From NCBI GenBank assembly GCA_008632985.1, contig QPGO01000115.1:124001-188000 (forward strand): a stretch of 64,000 nt of DNA, read 5' to 3'. The notes beneath the pieces are model-generated. The model was not told the DNA's origin, made no database searches, and worked only from the letters and a program-made list of their open reading frames with translations. The position numbers were made by a program, and so were the translations under genes. Origin of the DNA: Psammoneis japonica (lineage: Eukaryota). Positions 10,131 to 57,642 of this stretch are shown here, piece by piece (positions within the stretch are counted from its first letter, which is position 1; every line of letters begins with the position of its first letter).

Positions 10131-10149
10131 TTTCATGCACACTTGCAAG

Positions 10150-11900: not shown

Positions 11901-12759
11901 TGACAAAGATTAGCCAACAGCCACAACTGCCTCTCCAGTGATCATGCAGCTTGGATGGCCAGTGTCCTTGGCAGCCCTCCTGTCCTGCATGCAGCTTGTG
12001 GCAAGATGCACAAAGAACAGAGGCAATCTATTTTACACTGCTGTGCATCACTGCTTTGTGCAAGGTGAAGGTTGCAGCACAAGCAACAGATGCTGGCATG
12101 CAGCTTGTGTGGTGGCTGGTGTGCACAACAAAGTGCAGACCAACTGGTGGTGTGCTGGGAGAGTTTGTCAATCCAGGAGCAGGGTCCAGATGTGACAGCA
12201 CTTAAAATGTGGATTTCAGTTCTTCTCTCAAACCACAGCCCACCAAAGCACCAAGGGGTGCTGATGACTTCCACAAATGTTTGAAGATCCTCAAAAATCT
12301 TTTGACAAAATGCAAGATTGATGCTTCCCCAGTGCTGCAGGAAACATGGTTGTGTTGGAACATTGGGGTGTGAGTTGGTTTTTGTGAGACAGAGAATGTT
12401 GCAGCAAATGGCACACTGACAAACATTGATGACATGGCAAATTTACATCATTTGCAGCTCATGATGAGTTGTTGGTCTTGTGCTTGCTTTTCAGCTTCTG
12501 CACCCAGTTGACATGCACAGCAACAGCAGCAGCAGAAATGGGACTCTTGTGGTGCACAAGCCAAAGCAAGTTGGGGATTGGCAAAGCTGGCACACATTGG
12601 CCAGCAAGCCATGAAATCCCAACAGTTTTGCACATGGGTGGACTTGGCACCATTTTGTGAGTCCAGCTGAGCACAATTCTCATGACATGGGTCAGCCCAA
12701 ACTTTTTGCTGGGGCCCAAAAGCTCACTGCCTCACACATCAAATTGGAAGACAAGCATT

Positions 12760-14690
12760 TGGCAGCTGCAAAGATTGCCATTGTTGGTGATTGTGAAAGC
12801 TGTTTTTGAGTTGGCGCACATTGCTGTGAAATGTGAAAACTGTTTGTGAGTCAGCGCATGTTGCTGCAAAGCATTTGGTTGCATGAAATCTGCACTCACT
12901 GTTCACATGCTCTCATGTGCTGAACATCACAACATCTGTCAATGAGGAGCTTCTTTGCCCCAAGTTTGTTTTGGTGCTCAGTGAACACTGCACAGTGCAA
13001 ATCATTGTGTGCAGAGCCTTTGCTTGCCAGAGGTGAGAGACTGCATGGACAAGTCAAACATGCAATCCTTGTGATGTGGGGCACTTGCAGTTGACACACA
13101 GATGTGTCAACATGTCTGCTCACAGCAGAATGAGTGCACAAGTCTAAGTGGGCTTGTGAAATGCACACTTTTGAGTTGTGCATCTCCCACCACTGCTGGA
13201 ACCCCATGACACCAGACACATTGCCAGCATTTGCAAGTTGTCAATGCAATTTGTGCTGAGCCACAGCACACAAGACATTTGCTGGTGACTGCCATCTGTC
13301 AGCACAGCACATGCTGCACTTTGTTGAGATGCAAGCATCACACCAACAGCAGCAGAATTTTCTTTGCCACACATGCCAAGCTTCTTCAAGCAACAGCTCC
13401 ACAAATGAAGGCTCTTGGCCAACCTGCTCTCTTGGCCACAGACTCAGGGCTCAGGGTTTGGAGAAAGCATTCCCACAGGTTGTGAAGAAAATGAGAATGG
13501 CTGCCAAGTCAAAACATCTCCCAAAATGTGCAAGAGATTTTGATCTTCACAAACCCTCATTTTGACCTTTCACAAGGTGCCCTCTCTTGCAGATCATTGC
13601 CCTTTCTTTTTCTTGATGATTGAACCTCACAACAGCAAGTGTTGACTTGGTCTCTCCAGCGACACTGGTGCTGATTTTTGTGCTTTGCTTCAACCACAGC
13701 ACTTTTTGACCAGCACACTAGATTGATTTGCCAAGAGTTTCAGATCAAGTTTGGTGGTTCAAAACGTGGGGGTGGAGCAGTGGTTGGCTGAGTTGACACA
13801 GTGGCCCGTGCATGCTGAAAACAAGGGACTCTTTTTCACACTGCACATTGTCGCTCTGCAAGAGACATGGTGCAACAACCAGCAACACAGCTTGTGTGGC
13901 AACACTGTGTGCACAAAGTGCGCAAGCTGCATTTTTCATGGTTGTTGGAGCAGGTGGCAGTTCTGTTGGAACTTTGTGCACAACATTCACAGTGTGGCTG
14001 TTGAGCAACAATTTGCAGGTTGCAAAAGTGAGGGGTTCACAGCAAGAGCTTGATTTTGCAACCACTCTTGCTCTCTGGATTGTTTTGCCACCTTTGGCCT
14101 GTCATTCAACATTCCTTTTGAGCACTGTGTGCAAAATTCCAGCTGCTGTGTTCAAAGAGAATGAGCAGCTGAGTTTGCACTTCAGTGTGTTTCTTGCAAC
14201 ACAAGAAACAAGAAATGAGGCACATCTTTGTGCAAGACAAAGTCATGGCTGATTTGTGAGAGAGAAATGAGAACAAAGTGGAGTGCTGGAAGCAAGCTTG
14301 ATTGTGACACACTGGCTGTTGCAACAGCTGACAATGTCTCTGGCATTTGGCGATCTCAAAGTGGTCAAGTCAGCTGGCGAGTGAGCTGCTTGAAGTGAGG
14401 AGCGGGGGTTGCTTGTCCATTTTGATTGCAGAGACTGCAAGGATTTGTGCAAGGTTGAGCTGTTCAGTCCCAGTCTCCCAATTGTGACACAGAGCTCTCA
14501 TCCACATTTTTCACATGTCTCGCACCTTGTTGTTCAAGCCACAAGCAGCTGGTGCAACAAATCAAAGCCCGGCATCAACCACGAACAAAGAGTGCCACAA
14601 ATGCTGTGCACCTGAATCAGACAAGTGCAATGCATGCCAAGGAGAGTCCCTCTGAAAGATGAGAGGTTGGCTGCGACAACCTTGAGCGAT
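12760..14690 (+). repeat. Copy C of the ~2 kb degenerate direct repeat
   Basis: Colinear with 10150-11900; its 3' part (14230-14640) aligns with 14903-15310. Confidence 0.85.
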
Positions 14691-14708
14691 CCATGGCGCA
14701 AGAAGTCG

Positions 14709-14778
14709 ATTTTGCAACCTGCTCTGGCTCATTTTTGCAACCTGCTCTGGCCTCTGGCTCATTTATTTTGCAACCTGC
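14709..14778 (+). repeat. Short tandem repeat TTTTGCAACCTGC(TCTGGC) x3
   Basis: Directly visible; lies at the right boundary of the depleted block. Confidence 0.85.
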
Positions 14779-14902
14779 AATCTGTCGTTCAATAATCACT
14801 TTCAATGTTGTATACATATAATTTTATATACATTCAAAGAGAATGAATAATAAGATTTTTATTTCAAATCTTCAGAAATATAAGAGAATGCTCTATCTTC
14901 AC

Positions 14903-15310
14903 GCAAGACCCAGTCGTGACTGATTTGTGAGAGGGAGAAGTGGAACGAAGCGGGTCTCACAGTCAAGTGGGAGCAAGTTCGATTATAGCGACGCTGACTG
15001 TTATAACTAACAACGTCTCTGGCGTTTAGTGTTCAGAACCACTAATTGAGTAAATACACTGCTTGAAGTGAGTAGGGATTGCTTGTCTGTTTTGATTGTA
15101 GAAACCACGAGGATAAGTGCAAGTAGATTGAACTGTTCCATCACAATTTCAATCGTGACAACTATGCTAGTTCACGTTTCACTTTCATGACTCACTCATC
15201 TTGTTGTTCAAAACGCGTGATCAGCTGCAACAAATCGATACCCGGCATCAATCATGAAGGAGTGCCGCAAGCACCATTTACCCAACTTGAACGATTGCGA
15301 TGCATGCCAA
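14903..15310 (+). repeat. TA/CG-retaining partial copy (D) of the same repeat, overlapping the start of the downstream ORF
   Basis: Aligns with 14230-14640 and 11590-11830. Confidence 0.85.
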
Positions 15311-16879
15311 GCTTGGGTGGCCAGTATAGCTTATAACAAGCGTCAAAAGACCACTCGTCATTCTGAACACATCGTTCCACACCATACGGATGAAAGTGGT
15401 CAGAAGAATCACGATGAAAAACATCGTAGCTGTGCTCAGCTACTAGTACAAGCTGAACTAGGCGTCCAAGCTACACGAAGCGTTGAAAGTCAGAAATCCG
15501 ATGATTCCGTCGATCAGTATTTGAGGAAGGCCGAGATAGATACGGACGAATCATCGTTTGCTAGTGAGAGGAAAGGAGATGATGGAGATGATTCCTCTTT
15601 TAGCTCTGAAGAAAAGAATGACGATGACCCTGGTTCCGTTGCTACGGCCGTTAAGGAGGCCTCGACGTCTAACACCGCACTGCCTACTTTAGACGATGCA
15701 GGTTTGAAGGAACCCGAGGCTAATGACAGCAAAGCCTCAGGATCGAAAACGATTCCAGACAACTGCGTCGACCTGTCCTGTACAGACGTTGAACAGCAGA
15801 ATGCAATCACGAAGAAAGAGCTCGAAATTCGAAAGACTGTGTTCACGGAATCACAGATTAGTGATGGGAAAGACATAATGAACGAGGAGCAGTACGAAAG
15901 TATGGTGAAAGAGTTGCGTGCCTTTGCAAAAGAAGAAGGTTTAGCTGAGCCCAAATTTCTGCTCAATTCAAAAGAAGTGAAAAAGATCCAAGACAGCCAT
16001 GTCACGCTTGGACATCCCGGCATGGGGAGAAACCGGGATCACACTAGAGCTACCGAGATGATGTTTGACTACCTAAAGCAGAGGCCCCATCGAGAGGGAA
16101 TGAAACAAACCAGCATCGGAAGAAACACGAAAAAGGAGGATAAATTCAGTCCGTTTGAGACTTGGATGAGAAAGGAAAAAGAGAGATATGGGATTCAGGA
16201 GGATATAGTTTTTTTGAGGAAGAAGTACTCACTATCCGAAAGAAGTCAGGAGACAGAGGAATGGCCTGAAAACAAAATCGAGCCTGGGACAGAGGGAATA
16301 TATTTCTGGTCGGATCCTAAACACCCTGAGTTTGGTATCGCGACTCGCCTTGCGTTGGTAACTCACCGATTTGACATACAGCGTCAAATCTCGGATCAGG
16401 CACCAGGACAGACTATTGCGCAAGAGCCTCCAACTGAAGCACTGGCGAGGACTAGTCCTATTGAAACTAACGACGAATCAAGTTTCGGAGGCGACGGCTC
16501 GACAATGGAGATGGAGGACGAAGGGAAGCAGCCGATTTTGGAAGACGAGGACAAGCGGTCAAGTAATACCGATTTCAAAGAGAACTCTCGGAGCACAGCG
16601 GATGGTGGTGCGTCCTTGCACGAGAACAACGGGAATCATTGCATCGAGGTTGAAACCAACTACGGTAGACATGAAGACGAACGGAAAATGCGAGCTTGGC
16701 TGGATGTCCACCAGCTCCCGCAGTCCACGGCAGATATCTTGTTGGAACTGGGTGCTCGATGCGTCGATGACGTTTTGATGTTGGTGCAGGAAATGCCGGA
16801 GCATTTGTCGAATTTTCGTCCTCTGGATCTGCTGAAACTCAACAGAGCTGTGACTCAGCGCATGATGGGTTCACCGTAA
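15254..16879 (+). CDS. Unknown acidic protein with C-terminal SAM-like domain
   Basis: 541-aa ORF with normal composition; C-terminal MRAWLDVHQLPQSTADILLELGARCVDDVLML...LDLLKLNRAV resembles a SAM fold. Confidence 0.55.
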   Translation: MKECRKHHLPNLNDCDACQAWVASIAYNKRQKTTRHSEHIVPHHTDESGQKNHDEKHRSCAQLLVQAELGVQATRSVESQKSDDSVDQYLRKAEIDTDESSFASERKGDDGDDSSFSSEEKNDDDPGSVATAVKEASTSNTALPTLDDAGLKEPEANDSKASGSKTIPDNCVDLSCTDVEQQNAITKKELEIRKTVFTESQISDGKDIMNEEQYESMVKELRAFAKEEGLAEPKFLLNSKEVKKIQDSHVTLGHPGMGRNRDHTRATEMMFDYLKQRPHREGMKQTSIGRNTKKEDKFSPFETWMRKEKERYGIQEDIVFLRKKYSLSERSQETEEWPENKIEPGTEGIYFWSDPKHPEFGIATRLALVTHRFDIQRQISDQAPGQTIAQEPPTEALARTSPIETNDESSFGGDGSTMEMEDEGKQPILEDEDKRSSNTDFKENSRSTADGGASLHENNGNHCIEVETNYGRHEDERKMRAWLDVHQLPQSTADILLELGARCVDDVLMLVQEMPEHLSNFRPLDLLKLNRAVTQRMMGSP

Positions 16880-39894: not shown

Positions 39895-40137
39895 AGAGCT
39901 CAGCTGCACCACTACAAGAAGTTCGGCTTTTACGTGCAAAAACCCAAGCCGAGCTATGGTTTCTGTTGGTGTTCTCGAATTGTGGAGGGGATCATAATTG
40001 CGTTTCATTTTTTGTTTAGTTAGGTATCAACCGAGAGAGGTTCTCTAGTGAGTAGAACTGGAAGATATATCGGGCGCTTATGTCGAGGCGCTCGATTTTC
40101 CACAGTATGAGGGAATTATATTATTTAGAAACACTCT

Positions 40138-40553: not shown

Positions 40554-40896
40554 TGAGGGAAATAAAATAAGAAACAATTTGACGCATGCTTCAGCTTACG
40601 ATCTCATATATTGTATTCCAAGACATGTCAGGTACTTCGCTTCCGTTTGAGTGATGGCTCGACTTTTTGAGGAAAAGTCGATCAAAGCTCCGCAGATTAG
40701 GTAGCAGGCCAAAAGATTGCGAGTAGCTATCAACTTGAGGCTAGAGAAAAGCGTGGGGGAATCAAGGGCTAGTTCGAGACGAAGGGATTCTAACTGCATG
40801 AAAAAGAATGTTTAACATGTAGTTCGACGCAATCTTATAGCTAACGCTCTGCTCTCTTGTTCAATGAGCAAGGTACTATGGCTTCCGTTCTTGAAT

Positions 40897-41499
40897 TTAC
40901 TTTGCCAATGGAAGGAGGACATCGACGTTGCCCAATTGTTCGTGAACCATAAGAGCAAGGATACCCATTTGAGCTGCTCTGCCGTTGTTGAGCTCGATGG
41001 CGCGCTTCTTCAGCTTGGTGGCATCATCAAATTCGTCCCATCCAAAGTCAATAGCTCCGTTGCGGTAGTCACCTGGGAACTCGGCCTTTCCGTAGACATC
41101 CTTCATGAAGCACAATTCCAAGATTCCGATAGTGGCAATTACGTGGGCCATGTTGATCTTGGCCATCTCGTCCCAGGTGGAAGGGTTCAAGGCGGCAAGA
41201 CCACAAGGCATGCTCTCCATACCGAATGTTCGGACACCGGCGTAAGTGGTCAAATAACCAACGACACCAAGCATGGCAATTCTTCCATGTTTGATCTCAA
41301 CTTCACGAAGACGATCGAATCTGCCTTGGTCCTCGGCTCCGAGCATACCCAGGGGATCGAAGAAACCCAAAGGAATTTGAACGCCAACCTCATCAGCGAA
41401 TTTGTTGGCCGAAAGAGAGGTGCGTGCTTGTTGCTGCTGCGAAGGAGCAAAAGCAGCCGCAGAGGCGGCAAGAAGGGAAGTGATAAAGACAGTCTTCAT
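40897..41499 (-). CDS. Fucoxanthin-chlorophyll a/c binding protein (Lhcf/FCP)
   Basis: AAAFAP targeting motif; PLGFFDPLG; EIKHGRIAMLG; ELNNGRAAQMGILALMVHE. Confidence 0.96.
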   Translation of the reverse strand: MKTVFITSLLAASAAAFAPSQQQQARTSLSANKFADEVGVQIPLGFFDPLGMLGAEDQGRFDRLREVEIKHGRIAMLGVVGYLTTYAGVRTFGMESMPCGLAALNPSTWDEMAKINMAHVIATIGILELCFMKDVYGKAEFPGDYRNGAIDFGWDEFDDATKLKKRAIELNNGRAAQMGILALMVHEQLGNVDVLLPLAK

Positions 41500-41504
41500 G
41501 TTTC

Positions 41505-42510
41505 AACGTTTTGGAAGTGGTACCTTGCAAATTGTGGCGTGCTATTGGAGGGAAGCTACTGTAGTGTCTCTGGTCTCTGGTGACACAAGCCTTGTCGCGA
41601 TCTTCGAGTTGTTGGCAACTGCAACAAGAGATCTCGGATCTCGGGTTTCGTTTGAACTGCAACTGTATCTCTGGTGACGTGAGTCGTGCATTACGTCATT
41701 CGTGATTGGGTCGCGGAGCCTCGACAGGTCGCCAACCGCCCGACCATGACGCAACCCCGACGGGCCACACCTCGCAACTGCGTAAGAATTTGCATTATAA
41801 ACGAATGTGTTGTCAGAATGGTGACAACTGAAGTGAAATGGACACAAGCAAAGTTGACTTTTTCTGGCACCTCCCATGACTGCGAGCAGCCAGTGTCGTG
41901 CCTTGCTGCTGTTGTGCCGCGCTTGATGTCGACACATTTCTCACACAGTTCATCCTGTTGTTGATTGCCCTCATGCAGGACTCTGTCACAGATGGCAACT
42001 AAATCTTCCCTGGCATGAAATTCTGGCACTCTGTCCACCGGCCAGGGGGTGCTTTGCCTCTTCTTGTGCCAAACAAGATCTCATCTACAAAATGTCTCTT
42101 TCTCTTTTCTTGTGCACACAAGGGTGAAAACAACCAGCTCACATGAAGCTCACTTCTTGCAAGGTTGACCACAATGTCTGTGGGTGATCTGTCAATGAAA
42201 GAGTTGCCTGAACCTGCAGCCCTCACATGCCATCTGATTTCTTGTTGCCTGACAAGGCACAAGCTTGTTGCTTGTGCTCTGCAGCAGAGCAGCCAGGAGC
42301 GCTCTCCAACAAGAGAGCAGTGTGCATGACAGCCCCTTCCCAACAATGGCTCAAGAACCCCTCAAGCTGGAATGCTGCCAACAACAAAAAATGTGCTGTG
42401 TGTGTGTCGCTGTGCCATGCTGGGACAACCAGGCAGGAGGGTGTCTCATCGTCTCAGGTGCCGCAGCTGCACCAGCGTGGCAAACTTTGAGCTGCTCCAC
42501 AAACAACAAA
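41505..42510 (+). repeat. Left copy of direct repeat (Lhcf upstream region), interrupted by ~440 bp extra sequence
   Basis: 41505-41840 and 42283-42510 align with 55913-56445, e.g. TTGGCAACTGCAACAAGAGAT, GAATGTGTTGTCAGAAT, CCCCTCAAGCTGG. Confidence 0.85.
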
Positions 42511-44329
42511 CCACCTTTTCATCTTTGCTGAGAAATCACTTTTCAAACAAGAAGCAAGCAAAACAACACTGCACTTGTGCAAGTGGCCTGACCCGCTCTC
42601 ACAAATTGTTGCTGCAGCAGGTGCCCAGCTTTTTTGTCACAAGCGATGGTTGTTTGTTGAAAAATTGTCAATGTGGTTGCTCCCAGCAAAAGAAGAGAAA
42701 TTGCACATTGCACCAGCCAAATGACAGCACTGGTTGACAAAGTGAGTGTTTCTGCAAAGCTTGTGACTGAGTGCACCAAAACAAAACTGCCAAAAATTGT
42801 GCAGACCCCCTCACTTTTTTCCATGCCAAGATTGGTCACTTCTCTTGAGCTGTTTTCAAAGCAAATGGAGTGCATGTGACATTTGCTTTGGGTGGTTCAA
42901 CAATGCATCAATGCAGCTGAGTGAAAGGGGGGGGGGTTGACAGCAAACAGGAAAAAAATCTTCCTCCCTCACTCAAACCAAAGACGGCCATGATTCCATC
43001 CTTTCTTGGGCAAAGCAGAGGCTTTCACACTCTGCTCTCCTGCTCTTGCTCTGGTGGAGGGAGTGGAGCACTCATTGCCACAGAGAGAACAAGCATGTGG
43101 AAGGAATCACAGCGTTTGCTTGTTCATGTTTAATTGACCTCATAAATTGTGCAAAAAAATGCATCAATTCATGAGCTCAATTTCCAAACAAAAATGCCCC
43201 TCTGTTTTGAACCTCATTTTTTTATTTTCTGTGTCCTTCATCACCATGCCATGAGCTTGATCACCACTTTTGGGGTGCACTCCCAGCCTTGCCGATTGGT
43301 GGCAAAAGGAGACAGGTTGATGAGATCAAAATGAAATGAAATAAAATGAAATGAGGTGAAGGAGGATGAGGTGGATTGTGGCAATCCAAATGAGACATGT
43401 TGGCAATCAGATTGGTCCAACAAAAACAATCAAATGCTTGATCATAAAAACTCATGCAAGAAATGCATGAAACACAAATGCACAAATGAACACCAAGTGA
43501 CACCAACAACTGTGCTGGTGTGTGTGTCCATGGTGATTGAAGCAAATTCTTTGCAGCATGCGGTGAGTCAAGCTGCGCGCATTTCTGTGCAGAACGGCAT
43601 GTTGCATTTCTGATTTTTTTCTCAATGTCATCAAAAGACACTCCTCTCTTTGTTCAAATGACAGGACCTCAGATTGACAATGCCAACTCACTGGAAGAAG
43701 GCTCCTGATGTGTGCAGATGCCAGCTGTGTTGGGGGGGTGGCAAGCATTCTCTGCTGGATTCATGCACTGCAAAAGGCTGGAACCTGGCACAAGTGCTGT
43801 GCAACAGCTCTCAATGAGCTCTCCTGCTGGGTCACAAGACGCTGTAGAGCATCTCTCAACTGCTTGCTTTTGGTGCCCAAAACAGTCTTACAATTTTCCC
43901 TTTTTGACATTTTGTTCACCCCTTCCACCCAGTTCTTCAAGGCACAGCACGCACCACTCTTCTCTCTGCACCCCGGCTCTTGCCCACCCCTCTCTGGCTT
44001 TCTTTTGCTTGTTGTTCTTGCTCTGCCTTTTGTTGCAGCCACTGGTGCTGTTGCCAGACGCTCTGTTTCTGCACAAGCTCCTTTTCTGCATGTTGCACTT
44101 TGCTTCACATGTTGTTCCTTGTCCTTGAGAGGAGCTGCCTTTGGCATGGTGACAGGCGCTTGTGCAGTTGTCAGTTCTCTCCCCACTTTAACATCCAGGT
44201 CACTTTTGCAAGCTGACGACTGACTCTCGAACTCCCACTTTGCTTGAGTTGAGTTGCTCAAAACCTGCTGCCACAAAAAATGCCAAAACCTTGCACAGGC
44301 TGCAAAGATTGACAGGATGATGTCTCTGT

Positions 44330-44700
44330 GGCAAAAGAAGCGCAAATTTCCCCAGTTTCAAGAGTTGGGAATGGACGTGTGTGACATCAACAACAAGATT
44401 TGCAGAGACAACAGCAAGTTTATGACAGAGTGTGTCGACAACAACACAAACATGCTCTTTGCATGCCCGCCCCAATTGGGCAAGACAACGCTCCTGTCGC
44501 TGGCAGAGCTCCTCCTCAGCAACACAGAAACCGCTCCTGCCGGGCTAGAATCACACACACCAGATGATGTTGAGAATTCCTGGCATGTGGTTTCCATTGG
44601 TTTCAGAGATGTTGGGTTTGCCGGCGGCCGAAGGAGCGTGGGAAGAGCAGGTGCCAGCGCAGTCGATAAAAAATTCACAACACAGTCCAGCTTCGTGTCT
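44330..44700 (+). pseudogene. Degenerate AAA-ATPase-like (P-loop) gene fragment
   Basis: ICRDNSKF...LFACPPQLGKTTLLS resembles the YxDxT..F.RPRRFGKS motif of the AAA-ATPase-like family. Confidence 0.45.
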
Positions 44701-46404
44701 TGAGTTTCCTGTCAATGCACACAGGCACAAAAAAGCATTTTGAGACGAGTTTGAATTTGTTGGGGGGTTCAATGTACGACATGGATGCAGGAGAAATGAT
44801 CCGTTTGCTGTCTGAATCAATTGCACACGTGCATTTGAGAGTGATCCACTGTCTGCACAGGAGTGACCCTCTCCACTGATGCCCCCCCCCNCTTCTCCTG
44901 CACACACACACACACACACACACTGGGAGAATCAAAAGCCTGGTAAAAACAGGATTGAAGATCTTCTGGTGCAAGAGAGAAGTGGTGAGAGTCATGACTG
45001 CCAGATGGACAGACAGCAAAACAGAAACAATGTGTCCATTTTTGCGTCCGACACCATGCAGTCATCCACTCGTTAAACCAATCAATTGCATCGCCAACAA
45101 TTGACAGACTGGGAGATTGCTCAGAGCATGAGTGGGCAGCAAATCGGGAGGTCTGCCGGGATGATGCCAGAGTGCACTGTCGGGAGGCCGTCCAGACCCA
45201 GTCCAATCCAAGAGGAAATCAGGTGGGTGACTGGAGCAGCACCAATTTGGCAGCAGCAAGTTGCCAGAGAGCAGCCAAGGTGACAGCTGACAACAACTCC
45301 AAGCAGTGCAACCCCCCCACAATGGGAGGCTTGCAACATTGGCAGGGTTGAGGCCAGCAGAATCCGAGACAATTGACTTCCCAGAAAAGTCAACAGATTC
45401 ATTTGCCTTGTTCGTGGTGTGCAGAGAAGCCATCTGCATGTGGTGCACAGATGGAAGCTTGTGCCGTGCAACAATTTGATGAGCATCAAGGGAGTGCATT
45501 TTGATTGAACCAATTGCTTGTTCACAATGCACACTGTTGCTGCTCGGTCAACAGCAACACCAGCTTTCTTGTGCTCAATTGGCTTGCCAAGTTTGTCCAA
45601 AGCAATCTTAAAAACAGCCAATGGGTCAGTCTTGACAATTCTCAGAAAAAGAACAAGGGTCAACTGGTGGAGTGGTCACCAACAGAGTGGCAGCATGGGT
45701 GGGGGCATCAACTTGGCATGAGAAATTCTGGGCCCACGTGCATCCGTGGCTGGACGAGGTGGTGACAGCCTTCTGGGAGCATTGGAAGCATTGGAGGCTG
45801 GAATGTGGGCAAGTTCCAGGTCAATGGTGGTGGTGGCAGCAGATGGAGTTGTTGCTGTTGGGTGCAACTCAATGACAGGGCAAGTTGTGTCATGTGCAGT
45901 GGCAATCGCGGCGGATGGAGCAGATGTGGCTGAGGGTCCGCATGGGGTGTCGGCTGCAGCTGCAATCAGCAAATTGCCATCTTGAGCTGGTGCCTGGGAC
46001 AGAGCTGCCTCAACGATAATTTTGCTCGCCAGAATGACACCGTCGTCAAATGGGTGCCATTCACGGGGGCCATCACAATGTTTCATTGCGCTCAAAGAAA
46101 TCAACTGCACACGGGGCAGTTGATGTTGGATCTTTGATGGCGCACATCACGCAGGATTGCTGCGCAAGCAGAGTGTGTGCCATGCCACACGCGAAACGTT
46201 GGTTGATGATGCCAACAAAAGCGATGAGAGGAGAATGATGATGAGTGCACCGTTTGCGCCGATGGAGCGAAAGTGTTTGCATTGAAAATGCTCACTGCCG
46301 GTGTCGACAATGACGTGCTGAAGGTGTTTTGTTGTTTTGCGATGTGGCATGGCCCCTCCTCGCACTGAGCCAAAGCGAGGCTCACAACCTGAGAGTGATG
46401 CACT

Positions 46405-49400
46405 GTGTCATTTAGTCTTGGTGCCAGAACCCCGGGACTGATCCCTGGTTTTTGAAAATGCGGGTTTGAACCCCAAAATGAAAATGCGGGATTGAAACCC
46501 GGGTTTTTATTCACGCAGCTCGCAGTGCTTTTTCTGCATAATTTTGCCATTTCTTAGAACCCAATGTGACTTTGCTTCCCGGTTCTCATGGAAAATAGAT
46601 CACTTGATCCACTGCATGGCTGCTGCTGCTTGCAATGTTGAACAAAGAATTTAACATTTTATGTGGTGTTGCTGTCCTGCTGTTCAACAATGAGACTTTT
46701 GATGTGATTTGCATTCCATCTCTTCACCGCGATTGATGGTGGTGTCCAATCAGTCTTGCGTTTGTTCAAAGCAGCTGAGTGTCTTCCCTGCCAAGCCCAT
46801 GCAACAGTGCATCATGACAGTCAAGGAAACAGGTCTTTTGCTGCTTGCACCTTGGTTGGCAGGGAAGTGCAATGGTTTCCCACACAGGTCGCAACTCAAG
46901 TGCGAGTCTGCCCCGCACCAAACACAGACCCTTGGATGCTTGTGGCTGGCAGACACCGCATCAAAGTGACAACATAAATGTGGCACACTGTGACATGGAA
47001 GAGATTCATTTCCACCCTGCTGAGCGTGTTGGCGCATTGTTCTAATGTCACAAAATTGTCAGCTGTCGTCGTTTGTTCCAAAGCCGCTCTTCGTTGATGG
47101 TTTTGTTGCATTGTGACTCGCATTGCGGAGTCACCATGGCACAGACGTGCTTTGGGGTGACACTGCAGCATTTGTCTTGAGAGTTGGTCTCGGAACTCCC
47201 AGTGACCCACTGGACTGTCATCTTTCCAAGACAAGTCCAACCCACCCTCTGCCACTTCCAAACAAATGTCACATGCAATGACAACAGCCATGGCCTTGCC
47301 TTGGTTCACAGCAGAATGCCAACACTTCCAAGAACGACAGAACATCTTTGCATTTTTGATGCAATGATCCATTGAATCAATTCATGAGCAAGATGAAAGA
47401 TGCAGATCACGGGCTTCATTCATCTTGATTGCCCAGTGTTGCTTGCTCTCGTTTCTGCCCCTTTCCTGACACCTCACATGTTTGTCACACTCGTTGAGGG
47501 CATTCACAGCAGCAATGTTGCACGACAAGGTTGATTGAAATGAGCAAAGCACACGTTGGCATCCCTCAGCACTGCGTGTGGGCACCACAGTCTTGACAGC
47601 AACAATCGCATCATTGAACCTTGCTGCTTTCGATCTTGCATCCGATGGTGTTTGTTTTTTCTGAAAGCACTTCCCTGGCACACCCGAAGGGAGCCGATCC
47701 CTTCAACGTGCAAATGTGGCCGCATGGCCATTTTCTCCAATCCAGCCTGAACTGCAGTCAGCGTCAAAGCAGTTGTCACATGTTGCGTGTGGCTTTCCTT
47801 GGAACATCTTCTTGGGTCCGGCGTCATCACCCATTCTGCCATGATCCACCATTTCGCCTGCTTGTTCCAAGATCATGTGAATTTTCGTCGGGCCCATGGC
47901 ACCCCATCCATCTGTCCTTGGGTGCAATTTGTGTCGGTGAACACAAGCCCGAGGTTGGATCTGGTGCACACCCGACATGATCACTGTCTGACCACCCTTG
48001 GTGATGCCAGGCTTTCCAGCCATGCGACCGGCAATCCCGCCACCAGCTTCACCACAACCCGCATGGCCCCAAGTGGTTTCATCACCACATTGATCCAACT
48101 CTGCATGGTGTGTCATGCGCTGACATTGTGAACTGTTGTGCCGCGAATGTCGTGTCACACTTGCAGGCCGGGTTGCACCCAGCTTCTCCTCTTCTGGGGG
48201 ATGTCATGTTGTTGCATGGCTTCAGTGCTCACTTCATTTGAAGCCAATGTGAATGACAAATTGATGAGGACACATCTGAGTCACAGTTGGATCCATCAGC
48301 CATCCACCTGCGGTGAATGGCTCCATCACCACTGCCACCCTTGATGTCATCTCGGACAATCACTCCATCAAATCTGACAAGCTCCTGGATGCTCACAAGT
48401 TTGAACTGGTGTCCATGCAATGAGCATGGCTTCAACTCTCATGCGGCACAAAATTTGAACATGTTTCTACTTCACTGTAGAACGACTTTCTGGGGTCTGA
48501 GTTGACACCCGAATGTGCAGCATCACACATTGGTGGAATCAATTGACAAAAAACAAAGCATCCCGATTTTTCATCCACTCAGCATTCATTCCCAATGATC
48601 GCAACATGTTTGCATCCAATGATCCTTTCCTCATTGCTGGAAAGAGGTTGCCTTTTGATGCACCCGATCTGTTTGGCATTGACAACATCAAATCCTTGTC
48701 AGCAACATCATCACCAGACATTGACCTGTCCCATCCTGACAAAAGAACTCCCATTCATGGAAAATTCTCTTCCCTTCTGAATTCTCAGGCACTGGTGCGG
48801 TGCCAGTCGGCAAGCTGTGATGAATGTGCCAATGGGAATCTTTCGAAAATGACCCGTGACATAAAAAGCATGAAATGATTGGTGGACGCCTGCAGAATCT
48901 GCACGTTTTTGTGCTGAGGCTGTTGTGTTCACACAATTTGTGCAAAAACAGACTTGACTGTCATCGGGTCAGGTGCATTTTTGCAAATGCATTGAAGAAA
49001 AATGCACCTGATCAGAAAACAGTCAAGTCCATTTTTTTCGCAAAGTTAAAATTCACTGAGGACAGACAGACAGACTTTTCAACAATTGTCTTGGTGCTGT
49101 TCCACACATTTCCACGTAAATGACTCTAAAGTGCGAAAGATTGCCATTGCTTCTTCTCCCCTCTTGCCTCAAACTGAGGGCAGAAAGCACATCTGCTCCA
49201 CCCTCCGGGATTGTCCACATTGGCAAATGGTGGCTCCCCCTTGTCTGCCTTCATTTCAGGCAGCTGCCACCCTTCAGGAGTGCCTGGAACATTCAACTGC
49301 ACTGACGGGTCACGCTCACCAAGGTGCAGCAGCAAGGCAGCATGGTCATTGTCAGCCACAATCTGTTCATCACTGTCTTGGTCCACAACACGCGATCTCA

Positions 49401-50033
49401 ACCGTTCCAAATGGGCTTCAGCACGAGCTCCATCAATGTCGCTGACATTCTCATGCTCTTCGTCACTGTCACCACCATCTCCCATCTCTGTCTCATCCTC
49501 AAGGACATGCCTGGGGTTCACCAGTTGGTCCTCCACAGCTGCGGGACCAAAAGTCTGTGGCCGTCATGTGCAGTGGTGGCCCTGGTTGTTGTGCTGCCAT
49601 TCCACCAAACGCTTCATTGGTGCTTGCAGAGGTGGCCATCTTTGTCACGACGTTGATGCTCTGATTTGCTGAGCGTGTTGCTTTGATGACAATGGTGGTG
49701 GCTGCGGTTGTTGTGGTTTTTTTTTTGCAGTCATCGGCTTTTCAACGCAGACTGAGGTGACATTTCTGCGGTGGTGCGTCACTGCAAAAAACCTGGGATT
49801 CAGCCCCCGAACACCCCGGGTTTCAAGCCCACTCTGGTGACGACAACAAAATGCCAATGTAACTCCAGCCATTTCACATGTTATTTGAAGGGTGAACAGT
49901 CATTGGCATCTAGTCAAAACCTTCTGAGTGATGATCATGTTTGTTTGATCTTTCCATTTGATGGCCAATGGCTGCCAGTGGAAAACCCAGGACTGAATCC
50001 CGGGTTTTTCGGGGCACCCAGACTAAACGACAC
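46405..50033 (-). mobile_element. piggyBac-like DNA transposon with terminal inverted repeats and degenerate DDD transposase (~46750-49735)
   Basis: TIR GTGTCATTTAGTCTTGGTGCC (46405) vs GGCACCCAGACTAAACGACAC (ends 50033); catalytic-like GDETTW, TCDNCF, IDSMDH; C-terminal Cys-rich CVWCG...CDLCG; in-frame stops and frameshifts. Confidence 0.8.
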
Positions 50034-50187
50034 CAGGAATGACCCTCTCCACTCTCCACAAGCTCTCCACTCTAGCCAGTCTAACAATTTCAATGCTGGC
50101 AAACCACTTCAGTCACCCCTCTGTCTTTCCCACAATGAGGCTCTCTCATTTTCTCCTTGATTTGCTCTTCCACCCGCTCATCATAAA

Positions 50188-51681
50188 ATGGATGGAACTT
50201 GCGAAAGTTTCTGATTTGACGGGTCAAGAGGCTTGCACCCATGTGAAGATGGCTCCGGGCGACAGTCCAGAGGTGCATGGCTAAGTCTTTCACATGCCTG
50301 CTGGAATGGTGTTGGAAATTGCAAACTCATGTCCAAAGCTCAGGCGTGGACGATTGCCAACCACTGCAGCGCAGTTTCCCTTGCGAGTCAGCAACTGGTG
50401 TGAGTGGTTGGATGGTCACTCGAGTTGGGCTGTGCCAGAAGATTGCCGGCGATTGATCATGACGACAAGATGGTCCAGGTGACATGAGTGCACACATGCA
50501 GAGAATCATGGCCAGCAATTTCTACAAGCACTCGTTGGACCATCCGAAAACTCAGCTGTCAAAAGTGTTTGCTCACCCATCCTTCACAAGTTGAAGTCAT
50601 TTCAGGATGCAGAAACCTGTCAGACGCTGGGAGACAAACTCTTTCTCCTGAAAGCAGAACTGCAAAAAATTCACACCAGCCCTGCAAAAGAGAACCTCGA
50701 TCGCTTGATTGACGATTCTCCTGACATTCCAATGGTTTGGCGCCTGCTCACAGTCTTTGCTGACACCAGACTCGATGCCCTTCACGATCAAGTTCTCGCT
50801 CCCACCATGGGCTGGAGACATCACTGTCATGGATGTCACTTCATCTGCCCCACGAACAGTGCCATGTTTGGACCACAGGACATTTCTGCCATGGACATGA
50901 TGCATCTGCACAATGAAGGTGAGCATCTCTTGCCATCCAAAAAGTGCAATGTTCGCTCTCTTTTGCACAAAAAGGGTGACAGACTTGGATGTGTTTACGA
51001 CGGCGGTGACCATTGGAGGCATGTTGTCATGGTCCTGGACGTCCTTGACAAGGGAGCTGAACTGAAGGCTCGAGCATGAAAGAAGAAGCCATCCGGACAA
51101 GCTGGACCCAACGCCTTGGTGCTGACGAGACTGTGAATGTCAAGGGAAACTGTCTCATTTTGGGAGAAATCAATTGTCCTCCTGAGGACAGCAGAGGCCC
51201 ACCAGAAGTTGGAGAATGCCATGCATTCCTTCACAAAGGGAAGAACTTTGCTGTTTCTAACCACAACAGTGTCAATTGGAATGACCACGGTGTCACCAAA
51301 CCATGCGAGTTTGACCTTGAAGCCCATCAGCGGCGCTTCCAACAAGCTGTGGGATCATGCAAGAGCAGCTCAAGTGGGCATTTGCAGTTCATGACTCCAA
51401 TGCAACCTGGATTCTTGGGCTTCAAGGCTGGTTTCCTGATGGGCAAATCTGGCAAGAAGGGCCGCGTTGTGCTTGAAGACCATCAAGGTCCGTGTTCCGT
51501 GGAAGTCATTGGCAAGTCATGCCCCAGCGGCACTTGTGCAAATTGTGGCAAACAGGAAGGAAGCAATGCTGCTCCAAAGCTGTTTGATTGCAGTCCTTGG
51601 TGCAAATCTGCTGCCTGCTGTGGGAGATCTTGCCAAAGGGATCATTGGAAAGAGCACAAGAAGGAATGCAACGCCAAATGA
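50188..51681 (+). pseudogene. Degenerate MYND zinc-finger protein gene
   Basis: CANCGK...CSPWCKSAACCGRSCQRDHWKEHKKEC; upstream frame broken by stops. Confidence 0.7.
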
Positions 51682-54600
51682 TGGCAGAGAGAGAGAGAGA
51701 GCGACAAGTGTGAATGAAACATTTTACATCTAATTGCCTTTGCAATGATGCTGGGACTCTGCTGCAAGTGGTTGCCTTTCATTGGTTGTCAGCATGGTCA
51801 ATGGTTGCATGATGTTGACACAAAAACAATCTCATGGTGATGGGCCAATGTTGGGTGTGTTTCGCAGCTTGTCCCAGTCCACAACCCGGTCGCCTCCATT
51901 GCAAGGAACTGCTGCGAAATCAAAGCACGCACATTTTGTCATTGTTCCCAGGCTTTGGGTTGCCGTTTTGGTGCTTCGTCATCATGCTTCCTTCCTTAGA
52001 ATTCTTTTCCAAACACACACGCATGTCCAATGGCCATCGCTCCACCCTGTCCAAGGATGGGCCTGGCAGGATGAGAGACCAATCTTTTCACATGTGGCAG
52101 TGCCTGCCACCACATAAATTCACTTGGCAACATCATGATTCCACTGCTGAAATGGCAGCACCACCAAAACAAGATCCGCAGGAAAACAAATTGACTCCGC
52201 AGGGTCCAGCAGGCTCATGCCTGCGACTCAATGATCTCACTTCCATTCCTGGAAGCAGTTCTTTGCACTCTGCATCAGCATTGTCCCGCCATTCCCAATT
52301 TCGTGGCAATGTCCATGCATGCTGACCCAAAGTCCCAAGCCTTGGCAACAAAGGTCTGTCTGAGCTTTCCACCCTGGAGCAAAAACACAGCATCAACTCC
52401 ATCTCCACGGTCAAAATCAAAGCAATCACCCACGTGTTCATTCCTGTCATTCTTCATCCAAGGCTTTTTGAGATTTGATCCATCCACTTTCTTGACCTTT
52501 GCACACCCCCATTTGTTTCAAAATGAATCTTCACAGACATGGCGCCTTTTAGGGAGAAACAAGACGCGACTGCCGTTGGATTTCAGCACTGTCTTGTCTT
52601 TGCCATTGCCAACAACAAACAAAGCCGTGGCCATGTGTTGAACCATTTGGTGCAACATTTGCCCCAGATGGACTTCATCATCATGGATGGCCATTGTGTG
52701 CCCTTTGCTTTGAACAACTTTTCTGGACCTCTCATTGCAGCAGGGTTGCCGAGCTTGTGCATGAAGAATCTGATGGGTTCACATGTTGATCATTTGTTTT
52801 TAACAATGCTGCTGGATGAAGAGGCATTTGAGATTGGCAACATGCTTGGGGTGAAAAAATGTGTGGCAGAAGAAAGTTTGGAAGTGCATGACAGGAATTG
52901 CTTGCTGTCTTTTAGAGTCCGGCTTTGCAAAACGGAAAGTAAAAAAGGCCGTGGACGAGGTGAATGCATCATGCATTGCCAAAATGGCATCCATGCAGGC
53001 TTCAGACCGAGCTAAAAATCGAGTCATGGTGCACTCTCATCCTTTGGAACATTGGTGGTGATTGCTTGGTGACTCCAAGCTTTGTGTTGGTTTTCCATTT
53101 TGCTGAGAAGTTGGCAGCCAAGAAACTGTGTTCCAAGGTGGCTTTGCACTGTGCCTGAAGAATGAGTGTGAACGAAAGTAGAACAAAGTGCAAAAAGTGG
53201 AAATTGTGAGATTAAATTTTGCTCTGTGATTTTTGGTTTCTCTGAATGAGTTCTCAATGGCCCAAAGCTTTTGCACTGCTTCTGCAGACAAAAGGCCTTT
53301 CAGCAAATGCAATCATGACAACAGATTGTCGGGATGCGATTGCCATTGACATGCAAGATGACAACATTGTCATTCAATTGCATTTGCAATTTTCAACTTC
53401 CAATCAACTCTGTGTGATCATTCTGTCCTTTGCATGCATCCACGATTGTGGCATGATTGACATGTGTGTGATGCACGATCACACACATGCACACAACAGT
53501 TGCATTTTGCAGCTTCAAGGTTGCAGAGTGCAAGGCAGGATGTGGCACCACTCATGTCTCACGATTGTCTTCCAAAATGGGTTCTGCCCTTTCCCCTTGC
53601 ACACAAAACAGGGCAATGACATCCTGGGAGTTTTCAAACATTCCCGGCTAAAATGCTGCAAAGAATCCTCATTGGCAAAACAACCAACCTTCATGTGCTC
53701 AATCCACATCTCGCTGCACCCGCTTGGCATGCCACTGCTGGAGATGCGGCAAGCCGAAAACACACTGGAAAAGTGCAAAAAGAAGCTGCAGGTTTCGAGG
53801 AGAATGGCAGCATCGTGGAAGAAGTAAAGAAAAGCAAGGGTCCATTTCATCCTTTGGAAATTTTGTGATCACCTGTGTCATTTCACAACCATTCACTCAC
53901 TGTGTTGCTGAGTGTTGCACCATCATCGTGAGTGACATTGTGGTCATGCATCTTCCTTTGTTCCAGTTCCTTGACCTCTTGCATCTGCTTGAGAACAGAT
54001 CCTGACTTTGTGCAGGTTGGAACTCGTCACACAGGACCATTGTTTCTACCTCCTGCTCCTCTCATTTGATGCCTCTTGCCAGACCCTGACTTGGCACGTG
54101 GCACAGGATGACGGCAAGGACCATCTTCTTCAGAGGCAACACCATGTCATCCAGTCCACCTGCACCAGCAGTGAGAGAAGCCATTCTGCTCTTGGCTCTT
54201 GCAGGTGCATTCCTGGCAGCATCATGCACAGCACTCAACATGTGTCACCAGACTTTTGCCTTCGAGCAGCCTTTTTTGTTTTAGCGCCATTTCTTCATGC
54301 ACACGCCTTGCCTTTGTCTGCCAGAGGGAGACACAATCAGATCATCATTGCTTTCCGGCAAAGTGGCAGTGAACTCAGAGCCAAACTCTTCTGCCTGTGC
54401 AGCCGCCAACCTGCTTTCTCTGGCTTGCTGCAGTCTCAACATGGACGACACTGGTGCTTCACCATCTGCCTTTGCAGGCCTGAATTCAGAAGACTTTGTT
54501 CTGCCAGGTGCTCATCTTGTGAAATTTGCCTCTCCACTCTTTTTTCTTGGGAGTGGATGATGCTGAACTCGCTCCCACTCTCAGTGCATTGTGGTGGTTT

Positions 54601-55912
54601 TCAGCAACTTGGTCCATTTTTGTCTGCAAGCTCCTCTGTGTTGTCTCACTCTGCAGAAGCCACAAGGGATGCATCCACCAAAGATTCATCCTTGTCGTTC
54701 GATCCAGTGTTCAACAAAGGCATGATTGCGGGCTCACCAAGTGTTGCATTGCATGAATCTTGTCCGCTCTTCAACAAACCTCTGTGATGCTTTTTATCTC
54801 CCGTCAAATCATCTTCCTCGTCCTTGCAGAAGCATTCTTCGTCACCATTGACACTGGTCAGCATGGTCAGGGCCTTGCTCTCCTCTGAACAATGGCCTCC
54901 ATTGTTTCCATGGTTTGATCTGCAAGACTTGATGCAACACATCCATGTTGACCCCACCTTGCAGGAATGTCAGAACTGATGCCAGGCAATGCACAGATGA
55001 AAGGAGACAAGCCATTGTGGCTGACACATCGCCACAGGCATCTTCCTCATCTGCTGGTCCGTTTCTGTGGATTCCTCCATGCGCTCCCCCATGTGAGCAG
55101 CATTGCTCTGATGGACTGCAGTGCAATCACATGGAATGGCCAAGAAACGTCAAAAATGCTTCTGACACAAAATTGACAACAAACCATGAATGATCCTTGA
55201 CATCCAGCCCTGCATCTCTTCAAATTGACAGTCCAAAAAGGTTGTTGGGACAAGGTTGCACCCCTTTACATTTTCTTTCATTTTTCCTCAAGGAAGCACT
55301 CTTCAATTGAGGTTGCATCACATGGAGCACTGAGCATTGCCAGACCAACAGCAGATGGGTTCCAGTCCTAGCTGGAGGTGGGACTCCGTGTGACATTGGG
55401 CCCGCAGAATTCTGCGTGCAAGCTCCGCAGCAAATTTATGCTGCAATGAAAATGTGTGTGATCGCCAAAACAGAAAAAGAGACAATTTTACGAACGCATC
55501 TCCTCCTTCACACAGCACTTGTGGCACATCATTGACAGCTTGCCCGGGCACATTCTTCAGACATTAAAGAACATGCCCAGTGTGTTTTCATTGGCTTCGC
55601 AAAACAGGGAGCATGAAACAATTTCGTAGAATGTCACACGTAGAAATGTGCATGCACGACATACGACGCGATCCAAAAAACTGTTCGATGTCACAGTTCA
55701 GCAGCACGAGGTCCCACCCAGAGCTGGAACGCGTCAGCATTAAAAAAATCATCCGGGCCTGCTGTGGAGAAATGCATCAGATGCATCCTCTGTGGGCCTT
55801 GCCTTCAAGGCTGTTGTGTTCATGTCATTCAAACACATTGTTGTGAGCTGCTGAGGAACAGCAGATTGCATGAGGCGCGGGTTGTGTTGAACCAACGAGT
55901 TTGCGATTCATC

Positions 55913-56445
55913 ATTTTGGAAGCGGCGCCTCGCAAATCGTTGTGTGCTGATGGAGGGAAACTGTGTCTCTGGCAATGCAAGCCTTGTCACGATCTTTGAG
56001 TTGGCAACTGCAACAAGAGATTTCAGGTTTGAATTGAAACTTCATCTCTGGTGATGTGAGTCATGCACTGGTCATGGAGCAACTGACCATGACGTGATGC
56101 CGGCGGGCGACACCTCGCCCCCCACTGTGCAAGAATTTGAATGTGTTGTCAGAATTGTGACAACTGAAGTGAAATTCTGCAGCAGTCGCCAGCAGTGCTC
56201 TCCAACAAAAGAGCAGCAGCAGCATGGGTGCATGAGCTGACCCCCCTTGTCCCCAACAACAGCTCAAGAGCCCCTCAAGCTGGGATGCCATCAGTGGCAA
56301 GTTGGGCATGCCACCACGCCACACTGGGACATCTCCAGCCATGATGCAGTGGCTCCTGGGATGTCTCTTCTCCTGGGCATCGCAGCTGTGTTGCTGTGTG
56401 GAGCATGACAACTTCGTTGAGAGCGGCTGCTCCACAAGCAACAGC
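55913..56445 (+). repeat. Right, TA/CG-eroded copy of the Lhcf upstream region, directly upstream of panE
   Basis: Aligns with 41505-42510. Confidence 0.85.
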
Positions 56446-56577
56446 ATGTTTCCACCCCCCAAGATGTCTGCACGCCCCTCCGTTTTGAACCTCCTTTTTT
56501 TCCGCTTTCCGCGTCACCATGAGCACCGCAAGGCGCCCATAAAATTTCCAGTCTCCAGTCAAATTATTGATCGCATA

Positions 56578-57642
56578 ATGAGCCTCGCTTGTCAGTTAAG
56601 AAGATCAAGAGAAACAATATCGTTTGCTTTGCATCGAGCTTTTTCTGCATCAGACATGAGTGACACATTCTTTATGGAACCAATTCATGTGTTGGGAGCC
56701 GGTTCGATTGGCCTCTTGTTTGCCTCATCCATTCGAGCATCGTTTCCGTCCTTTCCCATACGATTGTTACTGAGACCCAAGCACAAGTCGATTGAAGGCG
56801 ATCATGTTCAAGTGTCAGTCTTTTCAAAGGAAACAAATCGACCTCGGTTGGTATCAATTCCCTTTGAAATTCTTCCCGGGAAAAAGCCAATCCGAAACCT
56901 TCTCATAACAACCAAAGCAACCCATGCTATTGAAGCAGTCGGATCCGTGTTTCATAGATTGGAACCAAATGCAAGAATTATTGTATTAAGTAACGGGGCT
57001 TTGGCAGTACGTCAAGAATTAGAGGAAAAGCTCGTTCACGAAAATACAACAATGCGACTAGTTCTTGCATCAACGACGCATGGAGCTTATCGAGAACATG
57101 ACAATGATGTTGACGACGACGACTTGTGGCACGTTGTCCATGCCGGGGTGGGAAAGACCTTTATTCAAGATGAGCCAGAGCTGAGTCAATTGTGGGATCG
57201 TGCTGGGCTTTGTTCAACAAGTATTTCTGAACGACAAGTCAACATCAACATGTGGCACAAGTTGGCCGCCAATTGTGTTATCAATCCTATTACCGCCTTG
57301 CTGCGGTGTAACAACGGACATCTCTTGGACATACCGGTAGATAACGAGTACAAGACAATTATGCAGAATGTGCTGAAAGAGTTATCAATGGTGGCACTGA
57401 AAGAAACCAATGGCGGAAACGAGTTGGAGTTGGATAGTCTCGTAGACTTTGTTCAACAGGTGGTGAAGGACACTGCGAAGAACAAATCGAGCATGCTGCA
57501 GGATGTTGAGAATAAGAGACACACAGAAATACGATATCTCAATGGATACGTGGTCAAATGTGGGCAAAAACACAGCATACCAACAACTGCGAATGAGAGC
57601 TTGTGCCAACGAATAGAAGAGCTTACTCGAGGCTTTCAATGA
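56578..57642 (+). CDS. panE: Ketopantoate reductase (PanE/ApbA family)
   Basis: IHVLGAGSIG, TTKA, SNG, WHKLAANCVINPITAL, NKSSMLQDV..RHTEIRYLNGYVV. Confidence 0.9.
   Translation: MSLACQLRRSRETISFALHRAFSASDMSDTFFMEPIHVLGAGSIGLLFASSIRASFPSFPIRLLLRPKHKSIEGDHVQVSVFSKETNRPRLVSIPFEILPGKKPIRNLLITTKATHAIEAVGSVFHRLEPNARIIVLSNGALAVRQELEEKLVHENTTMRLVLASTTHGAYREHDNDVDDDDLWHVVHAGVGKTFIQDEPELSQLWDRAGLCSTSISERQVNINMWHKLAANCVINPITALLRCNNGHLLDIPVDNEYKTIMQNVLKELSMVALKETNGGNELELDSLVDFVQQVVKDTAKNKSSMLQDVENKRHTEIRYLNGYVVKCGQKHSIPTTANESLCQRIEELTRGFQ

Follow-up and report, generated by a model that had tools for sequence, protein, structure and literature searches.

Point hypermutation directed at transposons has so far been known as a C-to-T process, whether by repeat-induced point mutation (RIP), by APOBEC or by the decay of 5-methylcytosine (5mC). 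Sequences subjected to RIP are recognized by a TpA/ApT ratio above about 0.89 and a (CpA+TpG)/(ApC+GpT) ratio below about 1.03. In enterobacteria, very-short-patch repair has a T:G-to-C:G bias that turns TA words into CA or TG words, and CTAG is scarce. Here, a decayed gene, probably of a piggyBac-like transposase, is described from a 64-kb window of the diatom Psammoneis japonica (positions 124,001 to 188,000 of contig QPGO01000115.1, assembly GCA_008632985.1; all positions below count from the first letter of this window), in which a run of 1423 nt contains no TpA. This run is likely to be part of a nuclear transposon island under in-place transition hypermutation at the DNA level, which converts TpA to CpA or TpG and is confined to the silenced island.

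Enzymatic modification of thymine on transposons has been described in dinoflagellates, where homologues of TET/JBP make 5-hydroxymethyluracil (5hmU) that marks and silences transposons, according to the accessible part of PMC11572971. Early work, as cited in PMC11071213, placed 5hmU in TA and TC contexts, and base-resolution mapping in Breviolum revealed no motif as far as the accessible part of the same source goes. Neither TpA loss in diatom transposons nor A:T-to-G:C hypermutation of transposons was described in the literature searched, whose coverage left out most subscription journals and supplements, so that an earlier report is possible.

TpA depletion in a transposon island

The TA-free run at 47045-48467 holds 0 TA and 44 CG (observed/expected, o/e, 0.49), together with 170 CA (o/e 1.88) and 154 TG (o/e 1.80). 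An earlier note on this DNA, made by reading the letters, had reported that TA was missing here while CG was still common, and had asked for a dinucleotide count; the count agrees on both points, as the o/e of CpG is not as low as that of TpA (0). The TAs at 47043 and 48468 bound a gap of 1425 nt, the longest among the 1646 TAs of the window, the runners-up measuring 1045 nt. With TAs as frequent as in the ordinary parts of the window (0.038 per nt), a stretch of 1423 nt would lack TA with a probability of 2e-24; with the 67 TA in 14450 nt of the depleted block around it, that probability rises to 0.0014, and the block should contain 0.09 gaps of this kind. Judged against the block, the run is therefore the tail of a block-wide depletion and no separate feature. 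The absence of TpA is thus confirmed as real, yet it is the extreme of a larger depleted block. The earlier note was right about the loss, too narrow in assigning it to one element, and had missed the flank motif described below.

Two depleted blocks, A and B, were located by 1-kb bins across the window, after which their edges were refined (Table 1). The remainder of the window has strand-symmetric o/e values of 0.56 for TA, 0.99 for CG and 1.14 for CA/TG. Block B, which contains the TA-free run, spans about 15 kb (about 41.8-56.5 kb). At the block edges, composition changes to that of the surroundings within 100-400 nt. Block A yielded no protein domain in a six-frame Pfam scan and contains internal repeats of 66% identity. 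It had been singled out before, at 6420-14790, as having lost both dinucleotides and as looking older. The double loss holds (o/e 0.04 for TA and 0.08 for CG); greater age fits it without being proven, as heavier methylation would yield the same result.

The gene under the TA-free run, hereafter the fossil, had been guessed to be piggyBac-like, and its relatives support that guess. In a full HMMER search, 1.84 billion representatives yielded 1040 relatives (best 2.4e-90). The cut-off of Pfam DDE_Tnp_1_7 (PF13843; 22.4) was passed by 2 of 10 relatives (P0128, 30.0 bits; P0145, 29.1 bits), with two more scoring below it, and precomputed PF13843 was present in 10 of 78 relatives from a second homologue search. 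The D-N-[YF]-F block is conserved among the relatives. The fossil protein itself has no Pfam hit; DPBB_1, a sub-threshold Pfam match only, was dismissed as its domain. By homology, the fossil appears to have decayed from a transposase gene of a divergent piggyBac-like lineage, most members of which fall below the Pfam cut-off. In sequencing run X1, the summed word depth rises from about 60 in the flanks to 500-900 over the transposase stretch (46.5-49.8 kb), which indicates that the element is multi-copy.

Within the fossil gene, about 325 nt at 48826-49150 are skipped by several run X1 contigs (joints 48792/48826 to 49148-49153). This segment matches a gap between tblastn segments, has a summed depth of about 4100 in run X1 and is probably a small high-copy insertion particular to the copy in the window.

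Direction and flank motif of the change

The direction of change was read from codon and amino-acid columns and not base by base, because no close DNA relative of the fossil occurs among 80 environmental loci (the best 80 of 312 relatives found in metagenome contigs); none exceeds about 72% identity, and then in short pieces only. The columns comprise 60 aligned homologues, with codons taken from 88 open reading frames (ORFs) of the environmental loci. At the 11 columns with consensus Tyr, the fossil has Cys ten times, His once and Tyr never. When Tyr columns are defined by the environmental codons, the fossil carries TGT or TGC at eight of nine and CAT at the other. The 21 consensus-Arg columns are mostly intact, with Arg at 17, Gln at three and a TGA stop at one (fossil codons: CGN 10, AGR 7, CAR 3, TGA 1). 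About 10 of the 14 columns that were plausibly CGN are still CGN, vs none of the 11 Tyr codons. The fate of Tyr against Arg codons had been named in the earlier note as a check on its view that TpA removal was complete before CpG decay and no mere by-product of methylcytosine deamination. That view is sustained by these codon fates and by a flank rule specific to TA.

The protein motifs named in the note hold up as well. In CRSWKCWH and ACDICLE, fossil Cys stands against Tyr in 42-48 of about 52-56 relatives, as had been supposed. In DNCF, relatives have Y at the fossil's C in 22 cases, and F (21) or H (11) in others. At fossil residue 167 a TGA stop stands where 40 of 59 relatives have R, most commonly encoded by CGA. 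The TGA just before IDSMD (residue 274), for which an origin from CGA had been suggested, lies in a variable column, with R as the commonest residue.

Duplicated segments lead to the same direction. At the right edge of block A, a segment is present in one copy inside and one copy outside the block. Sites that are TA outside are CA (8) or TG (5) inside, where no TA is left, and sites that are CG outside are CA (12), TG (5) or CG (1) inside; 16 of 29 TA sites and 4 of 22 CG sites lie in gaps or poorly aligned parts. The repeat pair across block B (41502-41839 vs 55907-56175) repeats this pattern in small numbers. Between two decayed repeats of block A (66% identity), 59 of 161 double-difference dinucleotides are CA in one copy and TG in the other, far above any other pair. 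Such an excess is expected if ancestral TA or CG was resolved independently in each copy.

The loss of TA depends strongly on the flanking bases. Residual density, defined as TA in blocks relative to background by class of flanking purine (R) or pyrimidine (Y), is 0.31 for YTAR, 0.096 for RTAR/YTAY and 0.008 for RTAY (2 sites vs 446), and the classes differ with a chi-square p of 2e-16. Among single words, ATAT is absent from the blocks (0 of 117), ATAC/GTAT stands at 0.008 and GTAC at 0.016, while TTAA stands at 0.64. These densities indicate that the target is 5'-R-T-A (T>C), or equivalently T-A-Y (A>G) on the other strand; RTAY contains two such units, RTAR/YTAY one and YTAR none. The same target explains why Tyr (TAY) became mostly Cys. 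Former Tyr codons that follow a pyrimidine are Cys in five of five cases, and the sole His follows a purine. In an environmental contig, L064, the classes fall in the same order (0.64, 0.35 and 0.13 for YTAR, RTAR/YTAY and RTAY).

CG loss obeys another rule. Whether a purine or a pyrimidine flanks the site makes no significant difference (p 0.16); G+C-rich flanks slow the loss most (CCGG 0.84, GCGC 0.60), and it is fastest in TCGA (0.20). Such a pattern is the expectation for spontaneous deamination of 5mC. The accompanying gain of CA/TG, as in deamination of methylated CpG (5mCpG), is present in both blocks, where CG o/e is 0.08 (A) and 0.39 (B) vs 0.99 in the background. The differing flank rules for TA and CG indicate two distinct processes within one territory. 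That TA loss is distinct from 5mCpG deamination, of which TA is no substrate, is supported by these rules and by the contrast between Tyr and CGN Arg codons. If a background-like start is assumed, class counts give survivals in block B of about 0.012 for RTAY, 0.12 for RTAR/YTAY, 0.32 for YTAR and 0.42 for CG, which would mean that RTAY sites were lost several-fold faster than CpG.

Confinement, recurrence and possible causes

In the explanation that we favour, a T that follows a purine and precedes A would be the target (R-T-A to R-C-A), equivalent on the other strand to an A before a pyrimidine (T-A-Y to T-G-Y). The process would act site by site on both strands, would be limited to the silenced island and would come to an end no more than a few hundred bases from the genes on either side. 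TpA loss would proceed several-fold faster than the decay of methylated CpG (CG to TG or CA) in the same island. Every Tyr codon would thereby be erased (TAY to TGY, Cys, or less often CAY, His), and likewise all TAA and TAG stops.

The alternative that needs no targeting is a general bias against TpA, under which the islands are merely old and neutral enough to have reached equilibrium and selection keeps TA elsewhere. TA is indeed below expectation even outside the blocks, and diatom genomes are compact, so that most non-island DNA may be constrained. At the codon boundaries of nine host ORFs, however, TA has an o/e of 0.66 (202 observed, 305 expected), about 10 times the block value, which makes a mutational bias on all neutral DNA unlikely. 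The sharp edges of the blocks, the duplicate 700 nt outside block A that retains TA and CG, and the reversed rank of RTAY (of all classes the one that survives most often outside the blocks and least often within them) also speak against this explanation, and we regard it as improbable.

A second alternative is a burst triggered by repeats, in the manner of RIP. Homology would reveal the duplicates, which would then be mutated in one or a few rounds, possibly during the sexual cycle and possibly with the help of DNMT4. According to the accessible part of PMC9998398, DNMT4 is related to fungal RID, is present in many diatoms (31 of 60) and is of unknown function. The restriction of the effect to repeat-rich DNA, the multi-copy depth of the transposase stretch and the near-complete loss of TA even where CG has hardly decayed are all in keeping with such a burst. 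The dinucleotides are opposite to those of RIP, which makes TpA by C>T at CpA: the TA-free run has a TpA/ApT of 0/99 = 0 and a (CpA+TpG)/(ApC+GpT) of (170+154)/(90+84) = 1.86, and a relative of cytosine methyltransferases leaves T:A>C:G unexplained. RIP mutates all copies and duplicated DNA only, whereas here the outside member of the local duplicate (14820-15380) is untouched and the single-copy-depth stretches of block B (41.0-43.7 and 53.7-55.3 kb) are as depleted as its multi-copy parts. These two observations speak for targeting of a chromatin domain and not of repeats as such, old diverged repeats being a possible alternative target.

Nor does the mode of change resemble a burst. No strand-coherent CA or TG tracts were found in the blocks (runs-test z -1.79 and 0.81, vs -0.95 to 0.48 in the background), which indicates a process that acts site by site on both strands. 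The environmental copy L064 is partly depleted (TA o/e 0.19, CG 0.65). A run X1 contig that spans 41000-43875 differs from the window at only 16 positions, among them alternatives of the types CG/TG, TA/TG and TA/CA as well as two adjacent TG/CA pairs. Among the 40 best-supported run X1 differences (a further 772 lie outside this set), 27 are switches among TA, CG, CA and TG, including four adjacent CA/TG exchanges. The partial copy and the near-identical versions that differ at TA, CA or TG suggest that the TA-erasing process is gradual, recent and ongoing. A burst in the manner of RIP is therefore considered unlikely.

The signature recurs outside the window. The TA-free transposase sequence is also present in contigs of run X1; runs X2 and X3 contain next to none of the window's DNA. 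Tyr makes up less than 1% of the residues in 3 of the 60 relatives aligned and in 14 of the 222 from databases (median 4.0%), with Cys and His raised and Arg mostly kept; these Tyr-poor relatives originate from ENA, Logan and JGI assemblies. In the transposase regions of the 80 environmental loci, TA o/e is 0.19-0.79, which is the likely starting state. Three of these loci (L046, L054 and L064; two from a microbial-mat metagenome, one from JGI) contain stretches without TA that are 659, 528 and 449 nt long and have CG o/e values of 0.46-0.57 and CA/TG values of 1.75-1.83.

Separately assembled contigs with the same signature argue against a read-out artefact of the window's record, in which modified bases of the island would be systematically misread, for example in long-read basecalling, as CA or TG in place of TA or CG. 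Islands of this kind are expected to be heavily methylated, and both TA and CG are self-complementary, like typical modification sites. The same TA-free sequence in run X1, the recurrence in contigs of other projects and in 14 of 222 database proteins, and decayed copies that differ by independent CA/TG choices, indels and frameshifts, unlike systematic misreading, leave this explanation with very little to recommend it.

Equally remote, in our estimate, is an origin in RNA: an ADAR-like enzyme would have hyper-edited transcripts of the element from A to I, and DNA would then have been copied from the edited RNA. ADAR-type hyper-editing has an RNA substrate, leaves A>G clusters on one strand and prefers G on the 3' side. 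A>G with a 5' U/T neighbour does resemble the ADAR preference. The 3' preference here is a pyrimidine, the element is a DNA transposon, both strands are equally affected (CA 170, TG 154) without tracts, and non-coding spacers and the duplicated promoter-proximal segment have changed in place.

Beyond the footprint itself, with its direction, motif, confinement and recurrence elsewhere, the cause of the TA-erasing process may lie in an enzymatic activity that is recruited to silenced DNA and whose action there is mutagenic. Two candidate chemistries fit equally. Adenine could be deaminated to hypoxanthine at T-A-Y and then read as G, or thymine could be oxidized at R-T-A to a base of the 5hmU or 5-formyluracil (5fU) type and then mispair with G, as 5fU does. 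No report of 5hmU in diatoms is known to us, nor was one present in the literature searched, which on this subject consisted of dinoflagellate papers only. Two other causes were rejected. Loss linked to N6-methyladenine, whose known eukaryotic motif is ApT, could not be connected to the RTA/TAY motif, and block B shows no specific loss of AT (o/e 0.93); T-A photoproducts of ultraviolet light would ignore island borders. More speculatively, diatoms might possess a new enzymatic system, of the DNA adenine deaminase or thymine dioxygenase type, that alters T or A at 5'-RTA-3'/5'-TAY-3' in silenced islands. It would act as an inverted RIP, independent of cytosine methylation, that erases every Tyr codon, TATA-like words and most TpA in a short evolutionary time. 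We put this forward as a tentative proposal that is somewhat more likely to be wrong than right; the activity behind the footprint has a fair chance of being new in kind.

Several points weigh against the favoured explanation. Sites outside TpA in the edge duplicate, too, have an elevated T>C rate (0.17-0.21 per site vs 0.39 at TpA), so that the specificity may be R-T-N with a preference for A and not strictly TpA. This pair is only about 66% alike, with the direction of change assumed, and the original composition is likewise assumed to have resembled the background or that of intact relatives (the 80 loci have TA o/e of 0.19-0.79). Residual TAs are perhaps partly new mutations, which makes the survival ratios rough. 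Run X1, whose library type is not on record, may be the source sample of the window itself and is not fully independent. The evidence covers one 64-kb window, run X1 contigs, environmental loci and database relatives. Both the chemistry and the targeting are what we infer from the footprint.

If the favoured explanation is true, a major group of marine algae would be subject to a new mutational force, a T:A>C:G process that has an RTA/TAY motif and is confined to silenced islands. This force would also be an indirect pointer to a DNA modification or editing activity that has not been looked for in diatoms. Decayed diatom transposons also escape protein-domain searches, as the fossil and the entire block A do. 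With TA gone, TGA alone can interrupt any of the six frames, and gene callers would predict long Tyr-free 'proteins' rich in Cys and His; the 14 Tyr-poor database relatives look like such products. The motif makes the hypothesis directly testable.

Neighbouring features and related systems

The features of the window and of the environmental contigs are collected in Table 1. A Sec61-alpha gene at 58137-59489 encodes a product 93-95% identical to named diatom proteins, which identifies the organism as a diatom. Each edge of block B is situated a short way upstream of a host gene, and depletion ceases within a few hundred bases of that gene. The PRiA4_ORF3/zf-MYND relic in block B has long frames only because TAA and TAG cannot occur there.

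Table 1. Positions and composition of the depleted blocks, the TA-free stretches and their neighbours
Feature	Position	Strand	Remarks
Block A, hypermutated island	6500..14790	.	TA o/e 0.04, CG o/e 0.08, CA/TG o/e 1.93
Block A edge duplicate, inside copy	14150..14700	+	0 TA; CA or TG where outside copy has TA or CG
Block A edge duplicate, outside copy	14820..15380	+	Normal TA and CG; overlaps start of ORF 15221-16876
Host gene left of block B, chlorophyll a/b-binding (FCP/LHC) protein	40900..41502	-	PF00504, 113.8 bits; ordinary composition
Direct repeat flanking block B, left copy	41502..41839	+	TA retained, CG dense
Block B, hypermutated transposon island between two host genes	41800..56540	.	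Strand-symmetric TA o/e 0.07, CG 0.39, CA/TG 1.72
Decayed piggyBac-like (DDE_Tnp_1_7-related) transposase gene, putative	46708..49503	-	Several frames, in-frame TGA stops; covers residues ~31-888 of ~900-aa relatives
TA-free run	47045..48467	.	0 TA, CG o/e 0.49, CA/TG o/e ~1.8
Relic PRiA4_ORF3 + zf-MYND protein gene in block B	50483..51678	+	PRiA4_ORF3 49.7 bits, zf-MYND 27 bits; TA-depleted like block
Direct repeat flanking block B, right copy	55907..56175	+	Within block, TA-free
Host gene right of block B, ketopantoate reductase PanE/ApbA	56236..57639	+	PF02558, PF08546; depletion ends ~56540
Environmental TA-free gaps	L046:698-1357; L054:6029-6557; L064:833-1282		Beside normal-looking transposase genes

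Just outside block A lies an ORF of 552 aa (15221-16876, plus strand) that belongs to no Pfam family and is ordinary in composition. Block A holds at least one hypermutated duplicate of its 5' region (14150-14700), and similar peptide words (KECHKCC...) recur in the block A repeats at 10.2-11.9 and 12.8-14.7 kb. The ORF may be an intact element that adjoins its own decayed copies. At the right edges of both blocks (14351-14764 and 55741-56540), CG returns 400-800 nt before TA, which indicates that the TA-erasing zone extends as far as the CG-decay zone or farther.

Beside the chlorophyll-binding gene, a tandem duplication (40108-40511 and 40554-40968; 420 nt, 85% identity) has ordinary TA and CG; its copies differ by 24 transitions vs 31 transversions, with no transition excess. 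Block B also contains two very high-copy short repeats, at 53122-53672 and 55326-55876, with summed word depths in run X1 of about 23,000 and 63,000 vs about 60 for single-copy DNA and with many joints and loose ends in that run. A single N stands at 44891 in block B, and run X1 reads seem to be cut at 44892-44932 and 43318-43363, where repeats are skipped.

The piggyBac transposases of the DDE_Tnp_1_7 family share with the fossil relatives that reach the Pfam cut-off and the conserved D-N-[YF]-F block; the fossil differs in having no Pfam hit of its own and relatives that mostly remain below the cut-off, as suits a divergent lineage.

With the RIP of ascomycete fungi, the process has in common that transition hypermutation is limited to transposon and repeat DNA, skews the dinucleotides and ruins coding capacity. 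RIP, by C>T at CpA, makes TpA and many stop codons, whereas the diatom process destroys TpA together with the TAA and TAG stops, without strand-coherent tracts and with one local duplicate copy spared. Deamination of 5mCpG is active in the same islands and gives the fossil its CGA-to-TGA stops and its Arg-to-Gln changes; it differs in that it cannot remove TpA, whose loss is faster and follows an R/Y flank rule that is absent from CG loss. Very-short-patch repair is bacterial, acts genome-wide and concerns one word, CTAG, which falls in YTAR, the most resistant class here. The 5hmU of dinoflagellates shares with the proposal outlined above an enzymatic modification of thymine on the transposons of an alga. 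It differs in that no mutational footprint has been described there and that the base-resolution mapping in Breviolum gave no motif.

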